Part shown: positions 332 to 32,367 of the stretch, one piece after another
Numbering within the stretch: position 1 is the stretch's first letter
Layout of the letters: each line of letters opens with the position of its first letter
DNA from: Coriobacteriia bacterium
GTDB taxonomy: Bacteria; Actinomycetota; Coriobacteriia; Coriobacteriales; UBA8131
NCBI GenBank assembly: GCA_009783245.1
Contig: WRHL01000014.1
Span: forward strand, 1 to 32,367
Length of the DNA: 32,367 nucleotides
Reading direction: 5' to 3'
Notes under the pieces: generated by a model
Database searches by the model: none
What the model saw: the letters and a program-made list of their open reading frames with translations, nothing else
What the model was told of the DNA's origin: nothing
Program-made: the position numbers and the translations under genes

Positions 332-2632
332 ATGGAGTCAGTACTGGGTGTGTTATCGACGATTATCTGGATAGTGGTAGCTATTGTTGTGCTGATTGTG
401 GTGATTATCGTCTTCAAGCTGCGCTATAAGATAGCGAAGTCCAACCAGGCGCTGGTCATCTCGGGCGGCAACAAGCGAAGAAAGAAGGTCGGCGCACAGG
501 GGCCCTCCGTGCTGGTGTCAGGAGGGGCGTTCATCTCGCCCTTCAAACGGCATGAGTTCTTCTCGCTGGCAGTGCTGACGGTTATCTCTGACGACAGGGA
601 GACCCAAACCAAGACCGTGGTCCCCGTTGTGGTGAAATGGACGGCACAGCTCAAGCCTGACACCGAGACCGAAGGAGCGCTGGCCAAGGCCGTCATGGGC
701 TTCATTGGCAAGAGCGAAATGGACATCAAGGAATCCCTGCAGCAGACCCTGGAAGGTGAGATCCGCGCGGTTGTTGCGACCCTGACGCCTGAGGAGGTCA
801 TCGAGGGACGCGAGAAATTCAAGAGCGACATTGAGGAGAACGTCAAGGAGCGCATGGCTGAGCTGGGCTTCAAGCTGATCTCGTTGAACATCACCGAGGT
901 GAAGGACAACAACGACCACTATAACAACCTTGCCGCGAAGGACCGCGAGGAGAAGCGGCGTATCGCTGAGAACCTGCGGGCAGAGGAGCAGAAGTCGATT
1001 GACGAGACCGCTGCGACAACCAGCCAGGTCTCAGAGTCTGCGCGTATCGCAAAGGACATGACCGTTGCGGAGAAGAACCGTGACCTCAAGCTGAAGCAGG
1101 CTGGCTTCAGGGAGGAGACCGACAAGGCCGACAAGGTTGCCGAGTTTGCCGGCCAACTTGAGGAGCAGGACAAGCTGAAGGACCTGGCGAGCAAGGAGGG
1201 CGAGGTCGCGGTTGAGCGGGAGAAGCAGAACAGGCGCGCTGCCGAGGCCCGCCGCGACGTGGAGACCACGCTTGCCGAGACCGAGAAGCAGAAGGCGGTC
1301 ATCAACGCCGAGGCCGCAAAGGCGAAATCCGAGATCGACGCGGACGCCCAAGCGGCCATTGCCGAGAAACGCGCCGCCGGTGAAGCTGAGGCAGCCAAGA
1401 GAAGGGCCCATGGCGATGCCGAGGCAAGGATCGAACGGGCCAAGGGCGAGGCCGACGCAGTCAGGGCCGCAGCAGACGCTGAGGCCGAGAAGATCCGCAA
1501 GACCCGTTCGGCAAACGCCGAGGGTATCGAGGCGGAAGGCCGGGCAGAGGCAGAGGCCATCCGTCAGAAGGGCCTTGCTGAGGCCGAGGCCGAGCGGGCC
1601 AAGGCCGAGGCTCTGGCCGCCCAGGAGGGTGTCAACCTGCAGGTCACGCTTGCTGAGATAGAGAGTCAGACCAGGATAAAGGTATCGACCGCCATCGCGA
1701 CCGCTGTTGCTGAGGTGGGCACCAACGCCACCATCATCGACATGGGCGCCGGCAACGGTATTACTGAGGGCGATCTGCTGTCGCGGCTTTTGGGGGGACT
1801 CCCTGAGACCTTGGCCAAGCTTGATGTGAAGAGTGCGGCGCTGAACGGACAGCCCTTCAGCTCCACGCTTAACGATCTTATCCGCTCTGTCACCAACACG
1901 CCGGAGAACCTTGCCGGGGCGGCGGTTACCGGAGTTGCGGCTGACAAAGCCTTGAACAAGCCGGCCAGGACACCGCGAGTTGGAGCCTTGGCAGCCAGCG
2001 ATGAACCAACTGCAGTTGATGCCGCTTCCCTGGATGCTGGAACGGCAGCGAATCTCACTGTCCCGGCTGTCACACCTGAGGATGAGCCAATCGAGGACAG
2101 CGCCGAGTTGATTGTGGAGATAATCCCTGAGACTGTTGAGCCTGTCACTGCCCCGCTTGAGGAAGCTCCCAAGGGCAGCGACTGGCAACCACCTTTCCGT
2201 GAGGGCTCAGGGGCAAGGAAGGCTGATAAGCCCAAGGAGAGCGAGAAACCCAAGGAAGTCGAAGTGCCCGAGGAAGTTGTTGAGGTAGCGGATGCCATAG
2301 AGGCAGCAGATGCCGTGGTGCCTTCAGCCGAGATGCTGCAGGCAGTTCAGAGCATCGCTAAGATAAACGAGATGGACCAGATACAGGCATGGGAACTTGC
2401 CCAGGTCTGCGAGGTCATCAAGGACGCCGGCCTACAGGTGGACAAAGACGTCTACACAGCTGCCTATAACGCAGTGGACGTCATCAAGACCATCCACAGG
2501 TCTGGCGAGAAAGTCGATGTCAAGCATGTCGCAAAGGCCATTCTTGACCTTGATGAGGGCGCAAGCTCCAGCGATATCCTCAAACGTGTCGCTGAACTGA
2601 CCAAAAAGGCCCGGGCCAGCAAAAAGAGCTGA
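332..2632 (+). CDS. Flotillin / SPFH (band-7) family membrane protein with a long Ala/Glu-rich coiled coil and an acidic C-terminal extension
   Basis: 766 aa. N-terminal TM helix 'IIWIVVAIVVLIVVIIVF'. SPFH-like region 'ALVISGG...GGAFISPF...', followed by a long EA/K-rich coiled coil typical of flotillins. RBS 'agagggagagg' before the ATG. Confidence 0.65.
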   Translation: MESVLGVLSTIIWIVVAIVVLIVVIIVFKLRYKIAKSNQALVISGGNKRRKKVGAQGPSVLVSGGAFISPFKRHEFFSLAVLTVISDDRETQTKTVVPVVVKWTAQLKPDTETEGALAKAVMGFIGKSEMDIKESLQQTLEGEIRAVVATLTPEEVIEGREKFKSDIEENVKERMAELGFKLISLNITEVKDNNDHYNNLAAKDREEKRRIAENLRAEEQKSIDETAATTSQVSESARIAKDMTVAEKNRDLKLKQAGFREETDKADKVAEFAGQLEEQDKLKDLASKEGEVAVEREKQNRRAAEARRDVETTLAETEKQKAVINAEAAKAKSEIDADAQAAIAEKRAAGEAEAAKRRAHGDAEARIERAKGEADAVRAAADAEAEKIRKTRSANAEGIEAEGRAEAEAIRQKGLAEAEAERAKAEALAAQEGVNLQVTLAEIESQTRIKVSTAIATAVAEVGTNATIIDMGAGNGITEGDLLSRLLGGLPETLAKLDVKSAALNGQPFSSTLNDLIRSVTNTPENLAGAAVTGVAADKALNKPARTPRVGALAASDEPTAVDAASLDAGTAANLTVPAVTPEDEPIEDSAELIVEIIPETVEPVTAPLEEAPKGSDWQPPFREGSGARKADKPKESEKPKEVEVPEEVVEVADAIEAADAVVPSAEMLQAVQSIAKINEMDQIQAWELAQVCEVIKDAGLQVDKDVYTAAYNAVDVIKTIHRSGEKVDVKHVAKAILDLDEGASSSDILKRVAELTKKARASKKS

Positions 2633-13401: not shown

Positions 13402-13410
13402 CAAGTTGAT

Positions 13411-13465
13411 TTGAGGTTAGTCGTCAAAATGACGACCAACCTCAATGGTCGGGACGACAGGATTT
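13411..13465 (-). repeat. Duplicate of the tRNA-Pro 3' end (22 nt) plus its downstream hairpin, with compensatory stem changes
   Basis: 13444-13465 'aatggtcgggacgacaggattt' is identical to 13711-13732. The hairpin 13411-13445 'ttgaggttagtcgtcaaaatgacgaccaacctcaa' parallels 13676-13712 'tttgaggttagcccccataatgggggctaacctcaaa'. Confidence 0.75.
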
Positions 13466-13628: not shown

Positions 13629-13650
13629 CTGGCGTTCGAATCCCTTCCCA

Positions 13651-13668
13651 GGTTCAAATCCTGTCGTC
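13651..13668 (+). repeat. Inverted partial copy of the tRNA-Pro T-arm / 3' acceptor ('GGTTCAAATCCTGTCGTC')
   Basis: Matches the T-arm/acceptor 3' half of the adjacent tRNA, but on the opposite strand. Confidence 0.55.
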
Positions 13669-13712
13669 TAAAGCATTTGAGGTTAGCCCCCATAATGGGG
13701 GCTAACCTCAAA

Positions 13713-13789
13713 TGGTCGGGACGACAGGATTTGAACCTGCGACATCCTGCTCCCAAAGCAGGCGCGCTACCAAGCTGCGCTACGTCCCG
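13713..13789 (-). tRNA. tRNA-Pro (anticodon TGG)
   Basis: Minus-strand sequence 'CGGGACG TA GCGC AGCTTGGTA GCGC G CCTGC TTTGGGA GCAGG ATGTC GCAGG TTCAAAT CCTGT CGTCCCG A CCA'. 7-bp acceptor, D, anticodon and T stems all pair. The anticodon loop is TT-TGG-GA. Encoded CCA end. 77 nt. Confidence 0.85.
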
Positions 13790-16873: not shown

Positions 16874-18193
16874 ATGAAGAGAATCATCATTATCGGAGCA
16901 GCGGGGCGGGATTTCCACAACTTCAATACCTGTTACCGGAACAACCCGGACTATGAGGTTGTGGCGTTTACCGCGGCGCAGATACCCGATATCGCGGGAC
17001 GCAGGTACCCGGCTGAGCTGGCTGGCAGCGGATACCCGGACGGGATTCCCATTTTTCCCCAGGATGATCTGGAGAGGTTGATACGGGAGTATGGGGTGGA
17101 TGAGTGCGTCTTCTCCTACAGCGATGTGACCTACAGTTTTGTCATGGGCCTGAGTGCGCGGGTGAATGCTGCCGGGGCGTCGTTTACGCTTCTGGGGCCC
17201 GCGCAGACCATGCTGAAGAGCGAGAAACCGGTGGTTGCCATTGGGGCGATCCGGACCGGCTGCGGCAAGAGCCAGACGGCGCGAAGGGTCATCGAGTGCC
17301 TCAACAAGAGGGGCCTAAGGGTTATCGCCATACGCCACCCCATGCCCTACGGCGACCTGAACGCGCAGGCTGTACAGCGTTTTGCCTCCCTGGATGACCT
17401 ACAAAGGCACAGCTGCACCATTGAGGAGATAGAGGAGTACGAGCCGCACATCACTAGCGGTAACGTGATCTATGCAGGTGTTGACTACGAGGCGATCCTA
17501 CGGCAGGCTGAGCAGGACCCGGCTGGCTGCGATATCATCCTCTGGGATGGCGGGAACAACGACTTCCCCTTTTATGAGCCTGACTTGATGATAACGGTGG
17601 TGGACCCGCACCGGCCGGGGCATGAGCTGTCCTATTACCCGGGTGAGGTTACGTTGCGCCTGGCGGATGTGGTGGTGATCAACAAGATCGACAGCGCGGA
17701 TTACGCTGGCATCCAGACGGTCAGGGACAACATCGCCCGGATCAACCCCGGGGCTTTGGTGGTGGATGCTGCTTCCACCATCAGGGTTGACGCACCAGAG
17801 CTGGTGAAGGGCAGGCGGGTCCTGGTGGTTGAGGATGGCCCCACGCTGACGCATGGGGAGATGCAGCTGGGTGCGGGGGTTGTTGCTGCCCAGCGCTTTG
17901 GCGCTGCTGCCATTGTGGACCCGCGCGCATATGCCGTGGGCCGTCTGGCTGATACCTATAGGACTTACCCCGGCATTGGCAAGGTGTTGCCTGCTATGGG
18001 TTACGGCGAGCAGCAGGTCAGCGACCTGGCCGCGACCATAGAGGCCACCCCCTGCGACACGGTTGTCATTGCAACTCCCATCGACCTGAGCAGGATCATC
18101 AGCATTGACAAGCCCCATACCCGGGTGAGTTATGACCTGCAGGAGATAGGGGCCCCTGACCTGGGCAGCATCCTGGACGAGTTTCTAGTATGA
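16874..18193 (+). CDS. P-loop NTPase resembling cyclic 2,3-diphosphoglycerate synthetase (COG2403-like)
   Basis: 439 aa. N-terminal Rossmann-like 'RIIIIGAAGRDFHNFN'. Central Walker A 'AIGAIRTGCGKSQTA'. Walker-B-like 'CDIILWDGGNND'. The size fits the cDPGS family. The assignment is from recollection of the family architecture. Confidence 0.45.
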   Translation: MKRIIIIGAAGRDFHNFNTCYRNNPDYEVVAFTAAQIPDIAGRRYPAELAGSGYPDGIPIFPQDDLERLIREYGVDECVFSYSDVTYSFVMGLSARVNAAGASFTLLGPAQTMLKSEKPVVAIGAIRTGCGKSQTARRVIECLNKRGLRVIAIRHPMPYGDLNAQAVQRFASLDDLQRHSCTIEEIEEYEPHITSGNVIYAGVDYEAILRQAEQDPAGCDIILWDGGNNDFPFYEPDLMITVVDPHRPGHELSYYPGEVTLRLADVVVINKIDSADYAGIQTVRDNIARINPGALVVDAASTIRVDAPELVKGRRVLVVEDGPTLTHGEMQLGAGVVAAQRFGAAAIVDPRAYAVGRLADTYRTYPGIGKVLPAMGYGEQQVSDLAATIEATPCDTVVIATPIDLSRIISIDKPHTRVSYDLQEIGAPDLGSILDEFLV

Positions 18194-18257
18194 CAAAGGG
18201 TATGACAAAAGGGACCGTCCCCTTTGTCATGACAAAGGGGACGGTCCCTTTTGTCAT
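18189..18257. repeat. Family-A palindromic element (two overlapping 'ATGACAAAGGG...CCCTTTTGTCAT' units). It supplies the TGA stop of the upstream gene.
   Basis: 'tatgacaaagggtatgacaaaagggaccgtcccctttgtcatgacaaaggggacggtcccttttgtcata'. 18217-18258 is a perfect palindrome. Confidence 0.85.
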
Positions 18258-18311
18258 AAAAAAGCGTAGAATCTCCCTTACGCAAATATGGGTGGGATAA
18301 GGAGTACTGCG

Positions 18312-29211: not shown

Positions 29212-32058
29212 ATGATTACCTTAGAACCTGATACTATGACGATAAATACAACTCCCGAAAAACCCGTCACAAGGCCGGAACTGCTGGCGCCCGCCGGTAG
29301 TCATGACGCCCTGCTCGCCGCCCTGAGCGCGGGCGCCGATGCCGTCTACCTGGGAGTTGAGGACTTCAACGCCCGCCGCAATGCCACAAACTTCCAGCTG
29401 GATAGGCTTACTGAGGTCTGCGACCTGGTCCACCTCGCCGGCAGGCGGCTCTACCTCACCTTGAACACGCTGGTGTTGCCGGACGAGACCGCTGAGGCGC
29501 TGGAAGTCGCACGTCAGGCTTGGTACGCTGGTGTCGACGCTGTGATTGTCTCCGATCTGGGGCTGCTCGACCGCTTGGCTACAGAGTTGCCACAGCTTGA
29601 GTTGCACGCCTCTACCCAGATGAACCTCCACAGCGGGCCCGCCGTGCGCCAGGCTGCCCGCTTGGGCGCCTCGCGTGTCACACTGTCGCGCGAGCTTTCC
29701 TTGGAGCAGATAGCGCAGATCGCCCAGGAAGGCGTGCCGCTTGAGGTCTTCGCCCATGGCGCGCTCTGCGTCTGCTATTCTGGCCAGTGCCTGTTCTCCT
29801 CGTTGGTGGGCCGCCGCTCCGCCAACCGCGGCCTGTGCGCCCAGGCATGCCGTCTGCCCTACCGCCTCATCGACACCTCCACCGGCAAGCGCCTCAAGGC
29901 GCCCGGCGAGCACCTGCTCAGCCCCGCTGACCTCGCCACCATCGACATCCTGCCCCAGCTTGTCGCCAGCGGTATCACGTCCCTCAAGATCGAGGGCCGC
30001 ATGAAGTCAGCTGCCTATGTCGCCACTGTGACCCGCGTTTATCGTGAAGCTTTAGATGGGCCCGCTAGTGTGGAAGGGATGCCTCAGCTGACTCGCGTCC
30101 CGAAAGCCGATCATGACAAAGGGGACGGTCCGTTTTGTCATGATTGCGAGGGCCTGCAAGCCGCTCAAATCCCTCGTCATTGCGAGGAGCGAAGCAACGC
30201 GAGCGACGTGGCAATCTACGGCAGCGGTCAGGGATCAGTGGCGCTGACACAGCGAAATGACAAAGAGGGCGGAGCGCATGAGATTCTCTCGGAGACTTTC
30301 TCGCGGGGTTTCACCACCGCGTATCTTGAGGGCGACCGCACAAACAGCATGATGAGCTATGCGCGGCCCAACAACCAGGGAGTTGCAGTGGGTCGCATTG
30401 CCGCGCTGGACAAGGGGCTGGTGGCCCTTGCACTGACCAAGCGGGTCACCCAAGGCGACCTGCTTGAGATCCGCACCTCGCGAGGACGTGCCACCGTTAC
30501 GCTTGAAAACTTTTGGGCCTCTTCTGACACCAAGAAGCCTCCGCTTACTGAGGCAGCAGAAGAAACCCGTATCTGGCTGCGGATCCCCGACCCCGTAAGC
30601 CCGGGCGACCGGGTATTCCGCATCCGCAACGCCGAGCTGCAGGATGAGGCCGAGTCCCACTACAACAACACCCTCTTCCAAGGCAACAACGGCCTGGTAG
30701 ACCTTCACGCCCAGGTCACCGCCCATCTCAACCATCCCCTGACCATCACCTTCACCACAGACTGGGACGGGGCACATGACAAAGGATATGACAAAGGGGA
30801 CGGTCCCTTTTGTCATATGCTTGTCACCCCGGGCTTGACCCGCGGCCTACCGTCGCCATCGCAGGACGATAATGGCTGTCGTCCAAACGGGCTGCCTTCC
30901 CGCCAGGCCTCGCCCATCCAAGGCACTGCAAGCGGCGACCCACTCCAGCCAGCCCGCACCAAAGCCCTCACCCCAGAGGACATCCGCGAGCACGTTGGAC
31001 GCGTAGGCGGCACCCCCTTCAGCATCGCATCCTGGGACATCCAACTTGACGAGGGCGTGGGCCTTGGCTTCTCGCAGCTGCACAGCCTGCGCACCCAGGC
31101 GCTCGAGGACCTCACGGAGAACCTGCTGCAACCCTGGCGGCAACGCCGCCTCACCAAGCGCGATGACCCTCCAGCCTTAGCGCCCGCGCAGAAAGGCAAG
31201 CCACGTGTTGCCGCCATAGTGCGCGACGCGGCCAGCGCAAAGGCCGCGGTACTCGGCGGCGCGGAGCTCATCTACCTGCACTACCTCACGTTTGAGGCGG
31301 AAAGCCAGCCAGACGCCAACGGCAGCGGCGGCAACGCCAGTAGCCCCGGCGCCAGCCCCAAAAGGCTGCCGACAAAGGTGCCCATCGTAGCGCTGCTGCC
31401 CGCCATCACCCATGACAGCGAGCTACCGCCCCTGCTGGCAAGCCTCAAGAACCGCAAAGCGGCCGTCGCCAACAACCTGGCGCAGGTCGAACTGCTCGCC
31501 GACACGCTCGACAGCCTGGAAGCCGGCCCCTCGCTGGGCATTGGCAACCAGGACGCCCTCGCCCTGGCCGTCAAATGCAAACTGTCGCAGGCCTGGCTGA
31601 GCCCCGAGCTCAGCTACCAGGACATAGCGCACATCTCCCCCACCGCACCGCTGCCGCTGGCGCTGACCATTGTGGGCCGCCAGGAGCTCATGGTCACCGA
31701 GCACTGCCTGCTCATGGCCCAGGGCCCCTGCGACCAACGCTGCGCCACCTGCGCCCGCCGCAAGGCCCCGCGCCTGCTGGAAGACCGCAAAGGCTACCTC
31801 TTCCCCCTGCGCACCGACCAGGCCGGCCGCAGCCACCTCTTCAATTCCGTGCCGCTTGACCTGGTGCCCTCCATGCCGGAGATCGTCAGCCTGGGCATCT
31901 CCACCCTGGTGGTCGACGGTACGCTCATGACGACAAAAGAGTTGCGCGCGGAGGTTGAACGCGCCACGCGTGCCCGCGACCTGGCCGTCAGGGGCGCCGG
32001 CAGCCTCCCCAAGCGCGAGGGCCAGACCACCGGCCACTTCTTCCGCGGCGTGTGGTAG
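29212..32058 (+). CDS. Peptidase U32 family protein (long form with DUF3656-like and second U32-like region). Carries in-frame insertions of the dispersed repeats.
   Basis: 'RPELLAPAGSHDALLAALSAGADAVYLG', 'TQMNLHS', 'EVFAHGALCVCYSGQCLFSS' and 'KIEGRMKS' are U32 signatures. The start may instead be ATG 29236. Repeat elements at 30109-30275 and 30775-30818 are translated in frame ('HDKGDGPFCH'). Confidence 0.7.
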   Translation: MITLEPDTMTINTTPEKPVTRPELLAPAGSHDALLAALSAGADAVYLGVEDFNARRNATNFQLDRLTEVCDLVHLAGRRLYLTLNTLVLPDETAEALEVARQAWYAGVDAVIVSDLGLLDRLATELPQLELHASTQMNLHSGPAVRQAARLGASRVTLSRELSLEQIAQIAQEGVPLEVFAHGALCVCYSGQCLFSSLVGRRSANRGLCAQACRLPYRLIDTSTGKRLKAPGEHLLSPADLATIDILPQLVASGITSLKIEGRMKSAAYVATVTRVYREALDGPASVEGMPQLTRVPKADHDKGDGPFCHDCEGLQAAQIPRHCEERSNASDVAIYGSGQGSVALTQRNDKEGGAHEILSETFSRGFTTAYLEGDRTNSMMSYARPNNQGVAVGRIAALDKGLVALALTKRVTQGDLLEIRTSRGRATVTLENFWASSDTKKPPLTEAAEETRIWLRIPDPVSPGDRVFRIRNAELQDEAESHYNNTLFQGNNGLVDLHAQVTAHLNHPLTITFTTDWDGAHDKGYDKGDGPFCHMLVTPGLTRGLPSPSQDDNGCRPNGLPSRQASPIQGTASGDPLQPARTKALTPEDIREHVGRVGGTPFSIASWDIQLDEGVGLGFSQLHSLRTQALEDLTENLLQPWRQRRLTKRDDPPALAPAQKGKPRVAAIVRDAASAKAAVLGGAELIYLHYLTFEAESQPDANGSGGNASSPGASPKRLPTKVPIVALLPAITHDSELPPLLASLKNRKAAVANNLAQVELLADTLDSLEAGPSLGIGNQDALALAVKCKLSQAWLSPELSYQDIAHISPTAPLPLALTIVGRQELMVTEHCLLMAQGPCDQRCATCARRKAPRLLEDRKGYLFPLRTDQAGRSHLFNSVPLDLVPSMPEIVSLGISTLVVDGTLMTTKELRAEVERATRARDLAVRGAGSLPKREGQTTGHFFRGVW
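30109..30275. repeat. Composite family-A + family-B + partial-A repeat block, embedded in frame in the U32 CDS
   Basis: 30109-30145 is the palindrome 'gatcatgacaaaggggacggtccgttttgtcatgatt'. 30172-30222 is 'cctcgtcattgcgaggagcgaagcaacgcgagcgacgtggcaatctacgg'. 30255-30273 is 'gaaatgacaaagagggcgg'. Confidence 0.8.
30775..30818. repeat. Family-A palindromic element within the U32 CDS
   Basis: 'catgacaaaggatatgacaaaggggacggtcccttttgtcatatg'. Confidence 0.85.
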
Positions 32059-32367
32059 CACAGAAGGGGACGGTTCTATTCTGTCCCCGGTGCAGTTGAC
32101 GCACTCCCCTGCGCTTGCGCTAGAGCCTCCGTCATTGCGAGCGCAGCGCCCGATGGGCGCGCAGCGTGGCAATCTACGCAGCAGACTCTCATTGTTGGCA
32201 GTTTGTCACAGCGCATCACCTTGCAGGTTCGTAGAGAAAGAGAATCAAACGGGAGGCAATGCGCTGTGTTAGCGTCCCTCATCCCCAGCCGCTGGCGTAG
32301 ATTGCCACGTCGCCTTCGGCTCCTCGCAATGACGAGGAGGCAATGCGCCGCGTTTGCGTCCCTCATC
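32057..32367. repeat. Composite repeat array at the window end: A-like (32060-32088), B (32121-32170), C (32251-32284), B reverse-complement (32293-32337), C (32334-32367)
   Basis: B copies share 'cctcgtcattgcgagg...gcgacgtggcaatctacg' with the intragenic copy at 30172-30222. C copies share 'gaggcaatgcgc.g.gtt.gcgtccctcatc'. The two C copies are about 83 bp apart. The array is truncated by the window edge. Confidence 0.75.

Follow-up and report, generated by a model that had tools for sequence, protein, structure and literature searches.

Hairpin repeats behind a U32 peptidase-like gene of a Coriobacteriia bacterium: a probable relation to the partners of Ssn nucleases

Contig WRHL01000014.1 of a Coriobacteriia bacterium (GenBank assembly GCA_009783245.1) was analyzed over its positions 1 to 32,367, referred to as the window. 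At its right end lies a gene for a U32 peptidase-like protein, and a cluster of repeats, designated A', B and C, starts right at the stop codon of this gene (end of the open reading frame, ORF, at 32058). Here we describe this cluster and the relation of its hairpin repeat B to the Ssn class of GIY-YIG nucleases. An earlier annotation made from the letters alone (the sequence-only reading) had proposed the order A', B, C, B (reverse complement) and C after the U32 stop. The repeats are real and lie in that order where this reading had placed them. The features of the region are as follows.

29212-32058, plus strand: U32 peptidase-like gene, 948 amino acids (aa), intact, with two repeat-derived in-frame inserts and the repeat cluster directly 3' of it
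30111-30175, plus strand: A palindrome (30111-30141) and a degenerate B-like head, ATGATTGCGAGGGCCTGCAAGCC...AAATC; first part of the first U32 insert
30176-30259, plus strand: B copy 1 (30176-30220) and a C-like unit (30221-30259), within the U32 gene and translated in frame as RHCEERSNASDVAIYGSGQGSVALTQRND
32057-32086, no strand: A' palindrome GCACAGAAGGGGACGGTTCTATTCTGTCC, an 8-bp hairpin in the fold, overlapping the U32 stop codon; member of a separate, lineage-specific family
32131-32178, plus strand: B copy 3, consisting of GTCATTGCGAG, the apical stem GCGCCC GAT GGGCGC and TGGCAATCTACG; left end of a palindromic doublet
about 32190-32222, minus strand: C', a degenerate inverted C with the core GTCACAGCGCA, pairing with the C at 32252-32283; inner part of the left arm
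32252-32283, plus strand: C copy GGAGGCAATGCGCTGTGTTAGCGTCCCTCATC; inner part of the right arm
32296-32333, minus strand: B copy 2, which reads GTCATTGCGAGGAGCCGAAGGCGACGTGGCAATCTACG on this strand; right end of the same doublet
32336-32367, plus strand: second C copy, detected by repeat comparison and cut by the window end
32131-32333, 203 nt, no strand: whole imperfect palindrome B+C'/C+B, seen in folds and in a homologous element on contig L134

The pattern GTCATTGCGAG-N(8-38)-TGGCAATCTACG has three matches in the window, compared with 0.00 expected from 100 shuffles. The three B copies are 38-48 nt long, each with the head GTCATTGCGAG and the tail GCAATC. Both C copies are 32 nt long and 91% identical; they had been described as about 83 bp apart, and the regular pair was recovered with a measured start-to-start spacing of 84. 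The 52 nt separating them consist of a linker and a B repeat. Alignment of three arms revealed the shared order pyrimidine-rich flank, B, linker and C, B and C forming one composite arm of about 85 nt; in this window they are not separate families. Since a degenerate inverted C' follows the first B, the segment 32131-32333 is an imperfect palindrome of 203 nt. C' is supported by the alignment of the three arms, by the folds and by its conservation in L134. The C', the composite arm, the palindrome and the link to an Ssn GIY-YIG nuclease had been overlooked by the sequence-only reading. By analogy with 32252-32333, the terminal C (32336-32367) would be expected to start one more unit of C and inverted B.

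The cluster folds far better than shuffled sequences on either strand (z-scores of -6.5 and -5.4), and none of 100 shuffles was as stable as the RNA fold of 32040-32367 (z = -6.5). A scan of the cluster found no terminator-like or promoter-like site. Rfam matches at gathering score in the window were confined to tRNA-Pro, and 29900-32367 gave nothing meaningful at E-values up to 10. A search for C outside this window found it, diverged, in L134 alone.

Repeat B belongs to a widespread family, as the sequence-only reading had supposed from a peptide, 'LRRFAPRNDG'. Its members have the form GTCATTGCGAG, a variable hairpin and GCAATC. Scanning IMG/VR with the loose pattern GTCATTGCGAG-N(8-38)-GCAATC yielded at least 120 loci, and scanning metagenomes with the exact window-type pattern yielded at least 105. 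Match lengths are not evenly spread and cluster at 26-37 nt, and many loci contain several copies. The peptide also fits the B family, since the complement of the variant GTCATTGCGAGGAGCGAAGCGACGAAGCAATC, present in six copies in five of the fetched loci, encodes LLRRFAPRND. The complement of the window B translates as RCFAPRNDEG, as had been noted; it is part of the minus-strand ORF 30065-30250, which reads ...RRSRCFAPRNDEG.... On its forward strand the LLRRFAPRND variant, a frequent one, encodes VIARSEATKQ, SLRGAKRRSN and HCEERSDEAI. A protein search with the product of ORF 30065-30250 (minus strand) returned no candidates, and a full-text literature search for the peptide strings and DNA words returned unrelated primers only.

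Among the fetched loci 267 distinct B variants were collected, in which the ends are fixed and the middle is variable, usually with a stem-loop of its own. The minimum-energy fold contains the outer stem ATTGC/GCAAT in 214 of the 267. B is built of a fixed 5' head GTC, the outer stem, an internal loop in which 5' GA faces 3' G-(A/T/C)-(A/G), an apical hairpin that varies in length and sequence, and a final C. Upstream of GTCAT the flank is pyrimidine-rich, and after GCAATC only C or T is favored. In the class of 30-nt variants (25 distinct sequences), compensatory changes were found in all three variable inner pairs; the covariation count was 22 cells compared with 7.0 in shuffles, a value reached by none of 500 shuffles, and slid controls were far lower. 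These data show that the hairpin structure of B is under selection. The commonest arrangement is the convergent doublet, which accounts for 51 of 131 adjacent pairs, mostly 10-28 nt apart. Three predicted viral contigs from IMG/VR (L080, L084 and L036) are dense in B-type hairpins, with 15 in 13 kb, 8 in 6.6 kb and 6 in 13 kb, respectively, partly as direct arrays with a spacing of about 40 nt. If Ssn restricts incoming single-stranded DNA (ssDNA), such a density in phage DNA would be unexpected.

The Ssn system was described in Neisseria. The protein of N. meningitidis, SsnA, consists of 94 aa with a single GIY-YIG domain and is assigned to cd10448 (Chenal et al., Nat Commun 2025, PMC11893778). 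It binds the Neisseria Transformation Sequence (NTS), CGTCATTCCCGCGMAVGCGGGAATCYRG, as ssDNA only and on one strand only, and cuts just upstream of it; the gene arrangement is NTS-ssnA-NTS, and 2% of the NTS in N. meningitidis are intragenic (PMC11893778). Thousands of SsnA homologs, mostly reported from Gram-negatives, are flanked by Ssn-related motifs (SRM), and the authors remark on the insertion sequence-like appearance and on a parallel to REP sequences and their RAYT transposases, with mobility not demonstrated by them (PMC11893778).

A gene of this type accompanies B. Starting from one ORF between inverted B pairs, tblastn and hidden Markov model searches recovered ten loci with GIY-YIG genes, nine of which belong to the 105 metagenome loci, 584 kb in total, that had been found through B. 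The encoded proteins, about 93 aa in the nine loci, are single-domain proteins of 92-96 aa that match Pfam PF01541 at E-values of 1e-13 to 1e-17. Their genes lie in cassettes with a typical layout: a B on the strand of the gene, 10-33 nt, the gene, 9-59 nt, and a B on the opposite strand. In three cassettes (L167, L198 and L205) the homology, 81-83%, spans precisely the 373 nt delimited by the outermost bases of the two B copies and stops there; in a fourth (L194, 79-88%) it starts at the same B and the contig ends inside the unit. The flanks are unrelated. When ORFs within 150 nt of B were clustered, GIY-YIG was the sole recurrent family resembling a nuclease or transposase, and the other large clusters look phage-derived.

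The association was also tested in reverse. Five loci (P0057, P0090, P0036, P0056 and P0071) found through the protein were picked by length or copy number with B disregarded, among them a metagenome-assembled genome (MAG) of Dehalococcoidia and a contig from an unclassified bacterium. In all five, B-type hairpins flank the gene on either side. B is therefore associated with Ssn homologs in both directions and family-wide. The L167 protein has 4,418 related protein clusters. NCBIfam contains no specific model for the small GIY-YIG proteins, and their best sequence match in the PDB is UPF0213 BH0048 (E = 0.0014). Aligned over 86 aa (residues 5-90 of its 93), the L167 protein shares 48.8% identity (E = 2e-19) with an ORF of N. 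gonorrhoeae that has seven exact NTS repeats within about 750 nt, which corresponds to the published NTS-ssnA-NTS arrangement. Judged by this identity to an NTS-flanked ORF, the B-associated proteins are homologs of Neisseria SsnA. The N. gonorrhoeae sequences, NZ_CP119142.1 and NZ_CP119140.1, are 2.17-Mb chromosomes mislabelled as plasmids in PLSDB. In locus L248 (10286-10410), the 3' B hairpin downstream of the ssn homolog is split by an apical insert of about 60 nt (GATTGCCACGCCTCGCAAAATCC...GAGGCTCGACTCGCAATGAC).

B, NTS and further hairpin classes have a common frame, GTC-AT-xyz...z'y'x'-AT-C, with covarying stems. Near other homologs the outer stems ATCCT/AGGAT, ATTCT/AGAAT and ATCAC/GTGAT were found. 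Hairpins of other classes with the GTCAT...ATC frame, some of which flank Ssn homologs, lie at the following positions.

L134, 1076-1110
L252, 1212-1961
L250, 9008-9916
L151, 343-377

B repeats also occur inside genes. The first insert of the U32 gene (30111-30259) is composed of an A palindrome, a degenerate B, a B and the C-like unit, and its part 30203-30259 (57 nt) is 82% complementary to 32257-32313 in the cluster. The second insert (30776-30822) consists of two A palindromes. The reading frame runs through the inserts, for example as HCEERSNASDVAIYGSGQGSVALTQR, and B is open in five of six reading frames. A U32 ortholog in L002 has neither insert, and in L001 and L003 the two linkers concerned contain other repeats. 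The closest U32 relatives come from Coriobacteriales, Eggerthellales and other Coriobacteriia MAGs with 54-58% identity, and no B was found in the loci of these orthologs. Exact-protein look-ups with U32 (two alternative starts), a 733-aa penicillin-binding-like protein and a 331-aa epimerase-like protein of the window matched no recorded protein. A phage portal-like gene in L084 (3846-5330, minus strand) carries a B doublet in frame, with a net gain of 19 aa including ...EIATPSARNDSPFVSLRGAEHRSNLVK...; this doublet is missing from the homolog in L116 (489-1877, plus strand).

Contig L134, from a related organism, contains an element homologous to the 203-nt palindrome in a different context (805-1013, 207 nt, palindromic; 72.6% identity over 186 nt). 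It is strongly folded as DNA (z = -8.9), and the contig shares the A palindromes of the window. This palindrome is closed, and no periodic units continue beyond it. Taken together with the B+C in the U32 gene that is missing from L002, comparison with the L134 element indicates probable movement or duplication within the lineage. L134 also contains an open frame of 511 codons (390-1925, plus strand), a putative gene that passes through A, B, C and GTCATCCTGAG-type repeats over about 600 nt with no stop.

B is best read as an Ssn-related hairpin motif. We consider it probable (about 0.7) that B is a hairpin repeat of the Ssn class and that the window cluster is a gene-less derivative of a B-ssn-B cassette, spread or recognized by an Ssn encoded elsewhere. 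An Ssn-type nuclease would bind the folded GTCAT strand of B in its single-stranded state, as it may arise in transcription bubbles or during replication, transformation or conjugation, and the nick would be placed a few bases 5' of GTCAT. The 203-nt palindrome could have derived from a B-ssn-B cassette in the way REPIN doublets and miniature inverted-repeat transposable elements (MITEs) derive from their autonomous partners, and it could have been spread by, or at least be recognized by, an Ssn-type nuclease elsewhere in the genome. We infer that a cognate ssn gene exists in this genome, that ssDNA is the form in which B is bound and cut, and that the 203-nt doublet is, or formerly was, mobile.

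Several observations weigh against this interpretation. No GIY-YIG gene was found in the 32-kb window. No more than three B copies can be seen in the window, compared with hundreds in strongly populated genomes. Other phyla appear to be the source of the ssn cassettes whose B ends are identical, and the closest named homolog belongs to a Syntrophaceae MAG. The cd10448 clade of the B-associated proteins is predicted and not a direct CDD assignment. The published SRM search pattern, HGTCWYN(0-2)YYVSBRHN(0-5)WNVSBRGN(0-2)RNCYNB, has no match in the window or in any of the B copies, while the NTS control matches. As for mobility, the element at the window edge yielded no clean empty site, and the surroundings of 69 convergent B pairs and cassettes revealed neither a target-site duplication nor a conserved target. 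Direct duplications are absent at the window element and at 58 of the 69 related pairs, the remainder having 1-2 nt, which is chance level; extended inverted flanks were likewise not found around B pairs. Transposition is therefore not demonstrated; the lack of target-site duplications fits elements of the ssDNA type and proves nothing. The mismatch with the SRM pattern is put in perspective by the hairpins around a Planktothrix Ssn homolog, which are missed as well; since both these and B are missed, the pattern is narrower than the family, a search tool and not a definition. L252, the only one of the four loci with other hairpin classes that was scanned, also has no match.

A stronger version of the proposal is possible, and we hold it only tentatively: the B-ssn-B unit (about 373 nt from first to last hairpin base) might be an autonomous mobile element with its only protein, the 93-aa GIY-YIG ssDNA nuclease, as the transposase, and the B doublets, including the 203-nt palindrome, and the U32 copies might be its non-autonomous derivatives. 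A classical cut-and-paste MITE does not fit: inverted ends are present but a target-site duplication was not seen.

Three other explanations were weighed. B could be a REP sequence with a GTAG head, mobilized by a RAYT, that is, a Y1 HUH transposase resembling IS200/IS605, and the cluster a BIME. The complement of B reads C-GTAG-ATTGCC... in all three window copies, with an imperfect palindrome after the GTAG head; inverted doublets outnumber every other arrangement, target-site duplications are lacking as in ssDNA transposons, and the related Neisseria sequence ATTCCCGCGCAGGCGGGAATC is regarded by Bertels and Rainey as a REP/REPIN associated with a Group 2 RAYT. This explanation is nevertheless disfavored, and we regard it as quite unlikely, because the enzyme beside B is a GIY-YIG nuclease, in an association that holds in both directions, and because the wider family lacks a conserved GTAG head and retains only the preference for C or T after GCAATC. 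Between inverted B pairs there is no RAYT-like ORF, the ORFs there being ordinary or phage genes, and RAYT is absent from the recurrent ORF families near B, in which GIY-YIG is present, although the sensitivity of this search was limited as no Y1 profile was run over all ORFs. Least credible is that the C units begin a CRISPR-like (clustered regularly interspaced short palindromic repeats) or other periodic array continuing past the window, as the sequence-only reading had considered. Two similar C copies at a regular distance, the second cut by the window end, would suit an array; however, only two are visible, and the interval between them is linker and B instead of a unique spacer. C occurs only beside B as the inner palindromic arm, inverted and degenerate within the palindrome and again next to B at 30221-30259. 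Tandem Repeats Finder reported no tandem array in 31900-32367, there is no Rfam match, and the homologous element in L134 is closed without periodic continuation. Those ORFs of the window that were examined are housekeeping-like.

The hairpins might also serve the host without a nuclease partner in this genome, as relic or domesticated repeats, a stabilizer of the U32 3' end, a terminator-like barrier or recombination hot spots. The position of the cluster at the U32 stop codon, the very stable folds on both strands, the lack of an ssn gene in the window and the tolerance of intragenic copies in frame would agree with such a role. In addition, the apical hairpins differ among the three B copies, which are therefore not recent copies of one master. 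On the other hand, there is no site resembling an intrinsic terminator, because the stems are not followed by a T-run. The same element is found in unrelated contexts, including the inside of ORFs, which argues against a locus-specific regulatory role, and the asymmetric GTCAT head is conserved family-wide, which points to recognition by a protein. We consider a purely host-serving function improbable, more probable though than mobilization by a RAYT, and it is compatible with an Ssn origin of the repeats.

A second, lineage-specific palindrome family, A, often adjoins B. It is represented by ATGACAAAGGGGACGGTCCCTTTTGTCAT and GGACAGAAGGGGACGGTTCTATT, and its core AAGGGGACGGT occurs eight times in the window compared with 0.46 expected. 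Repeat A has no match in IMG/VR. Its sites are as follows.

Window: 3-102, 18190-18258, 30111-30141, 30776-30822 and 32057-32086
L134: 1-110, 638-712 and 2392-2450
L001: 4332-4415

Further inverted repeats lie beside the tRNA-Pro gene of the window (13713-13789, minus strand). One of 48 nt with 90% complementarity (13646-13742) overlaps the 3' part of this gene, and its appearance suggests an integration scar or a partial inverted duplication of the tRNA. Next to it are two more hairpins, ATTTGAGGTTAG...CTAACCTCAA, at 13409-13445 and 13675-13711.

The Ssn-related reading gives a concrete identity to a repeat met by gene callers in many phyla, namely that of a hairpin partner of ssDNA-specific Ssn nucleases, and it marks the window-edge region as selfish or structural repeat DNA, neither a CRISPR array nor a gene. 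The general Ssn system was already published in 2025; the additions made here are a large unrecognized class, sharply bounded 373-nt cassettes and in-frame intragenic copies. At least one very large class escapes the published SRM pattern, namely the GAG-loop hairpins whose stems are ATTGC, ATCCT or ATTCT; about 4,400 protein clusters are related to the partner enzyme. Hairpin-bounded cassettes, the same doublet in different contexts and in-frame carriage in a U32 gene and a phage portal-like gene all bear on the mobility of Ssn and SRM. Were the autonomous element real, B-ssn-B would be among the smallest autonomous mobile elements known, insertion of its derivatives would leave no target duplication, proteins could carry these derivatives in frame, and the 'LRRFAPRND/VIARSEATKQS' pseudo-peptides of many phyla would be footprints of one system.

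Compared with known systems, B resembles SRM and NTS most directly: its repeats are oriented hairpins, 20-50 nt long, in which the GTCAT head is conserved and the end is ...ATC, in other loci inverted copies surround a single-domain GIY-YIG gene of about 94 aa, and B also occurs as orphan copies and in clusters near genes. It differs from NTS in its outer stem (ATTGC/GCAAT instead of ATTCCCGC/GCGGGAAT) and in having a GA/GWR internal loop with an apical hairpin of variable length. The window B is joined to a lineage-specific C module in a 203-nt palindrome, and copies lie in frame inside a coding gene, unlike NTS with its 2% of intragenic copies in N. meningitidis. Unlike NTS-ssnA-NTS, the window shows no ssn gene, and its Coriobacteriia-like host is Gram-positive, unlike most hosts from which Ssn homologs are reported.

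With the repetitive extragenic palindromic (REP) sequences, REPINs and BIMEs and their REP-associated tyrosine transposases (RAYT) of E. coli, Pseudomonas and Neisseria, B has in common short imperfect palindromes, frequent inverted doublets forming long hairpins, clusters after genes, repeats flanking a partner gene and the lack of target-site duplication. The partner of B is a GIY-YIG nuclease, however, and not a Y1 HUH transposase, and a GTAG head is not a family-wide property. Rickettsia palindromic elements (RPE), of about 100-150 bp, and cyanobacterial MITEs are palindromic repeats that lie in frame within protein-coding genes, and no dedicated nuclease is known for RPE. The frame-keeping insertions in the U32 gene and in the portal-like gene of L084, as compared with L116, are of this kind, although RPE belong to a different sequence family and no target-site duplication was seen for B. 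The dRS3/NIME mosaics of Neisseria have other modules, and C is restricted to the lineage of the window; like B with C, they alternate short inverted hairpin repeats with further modules.

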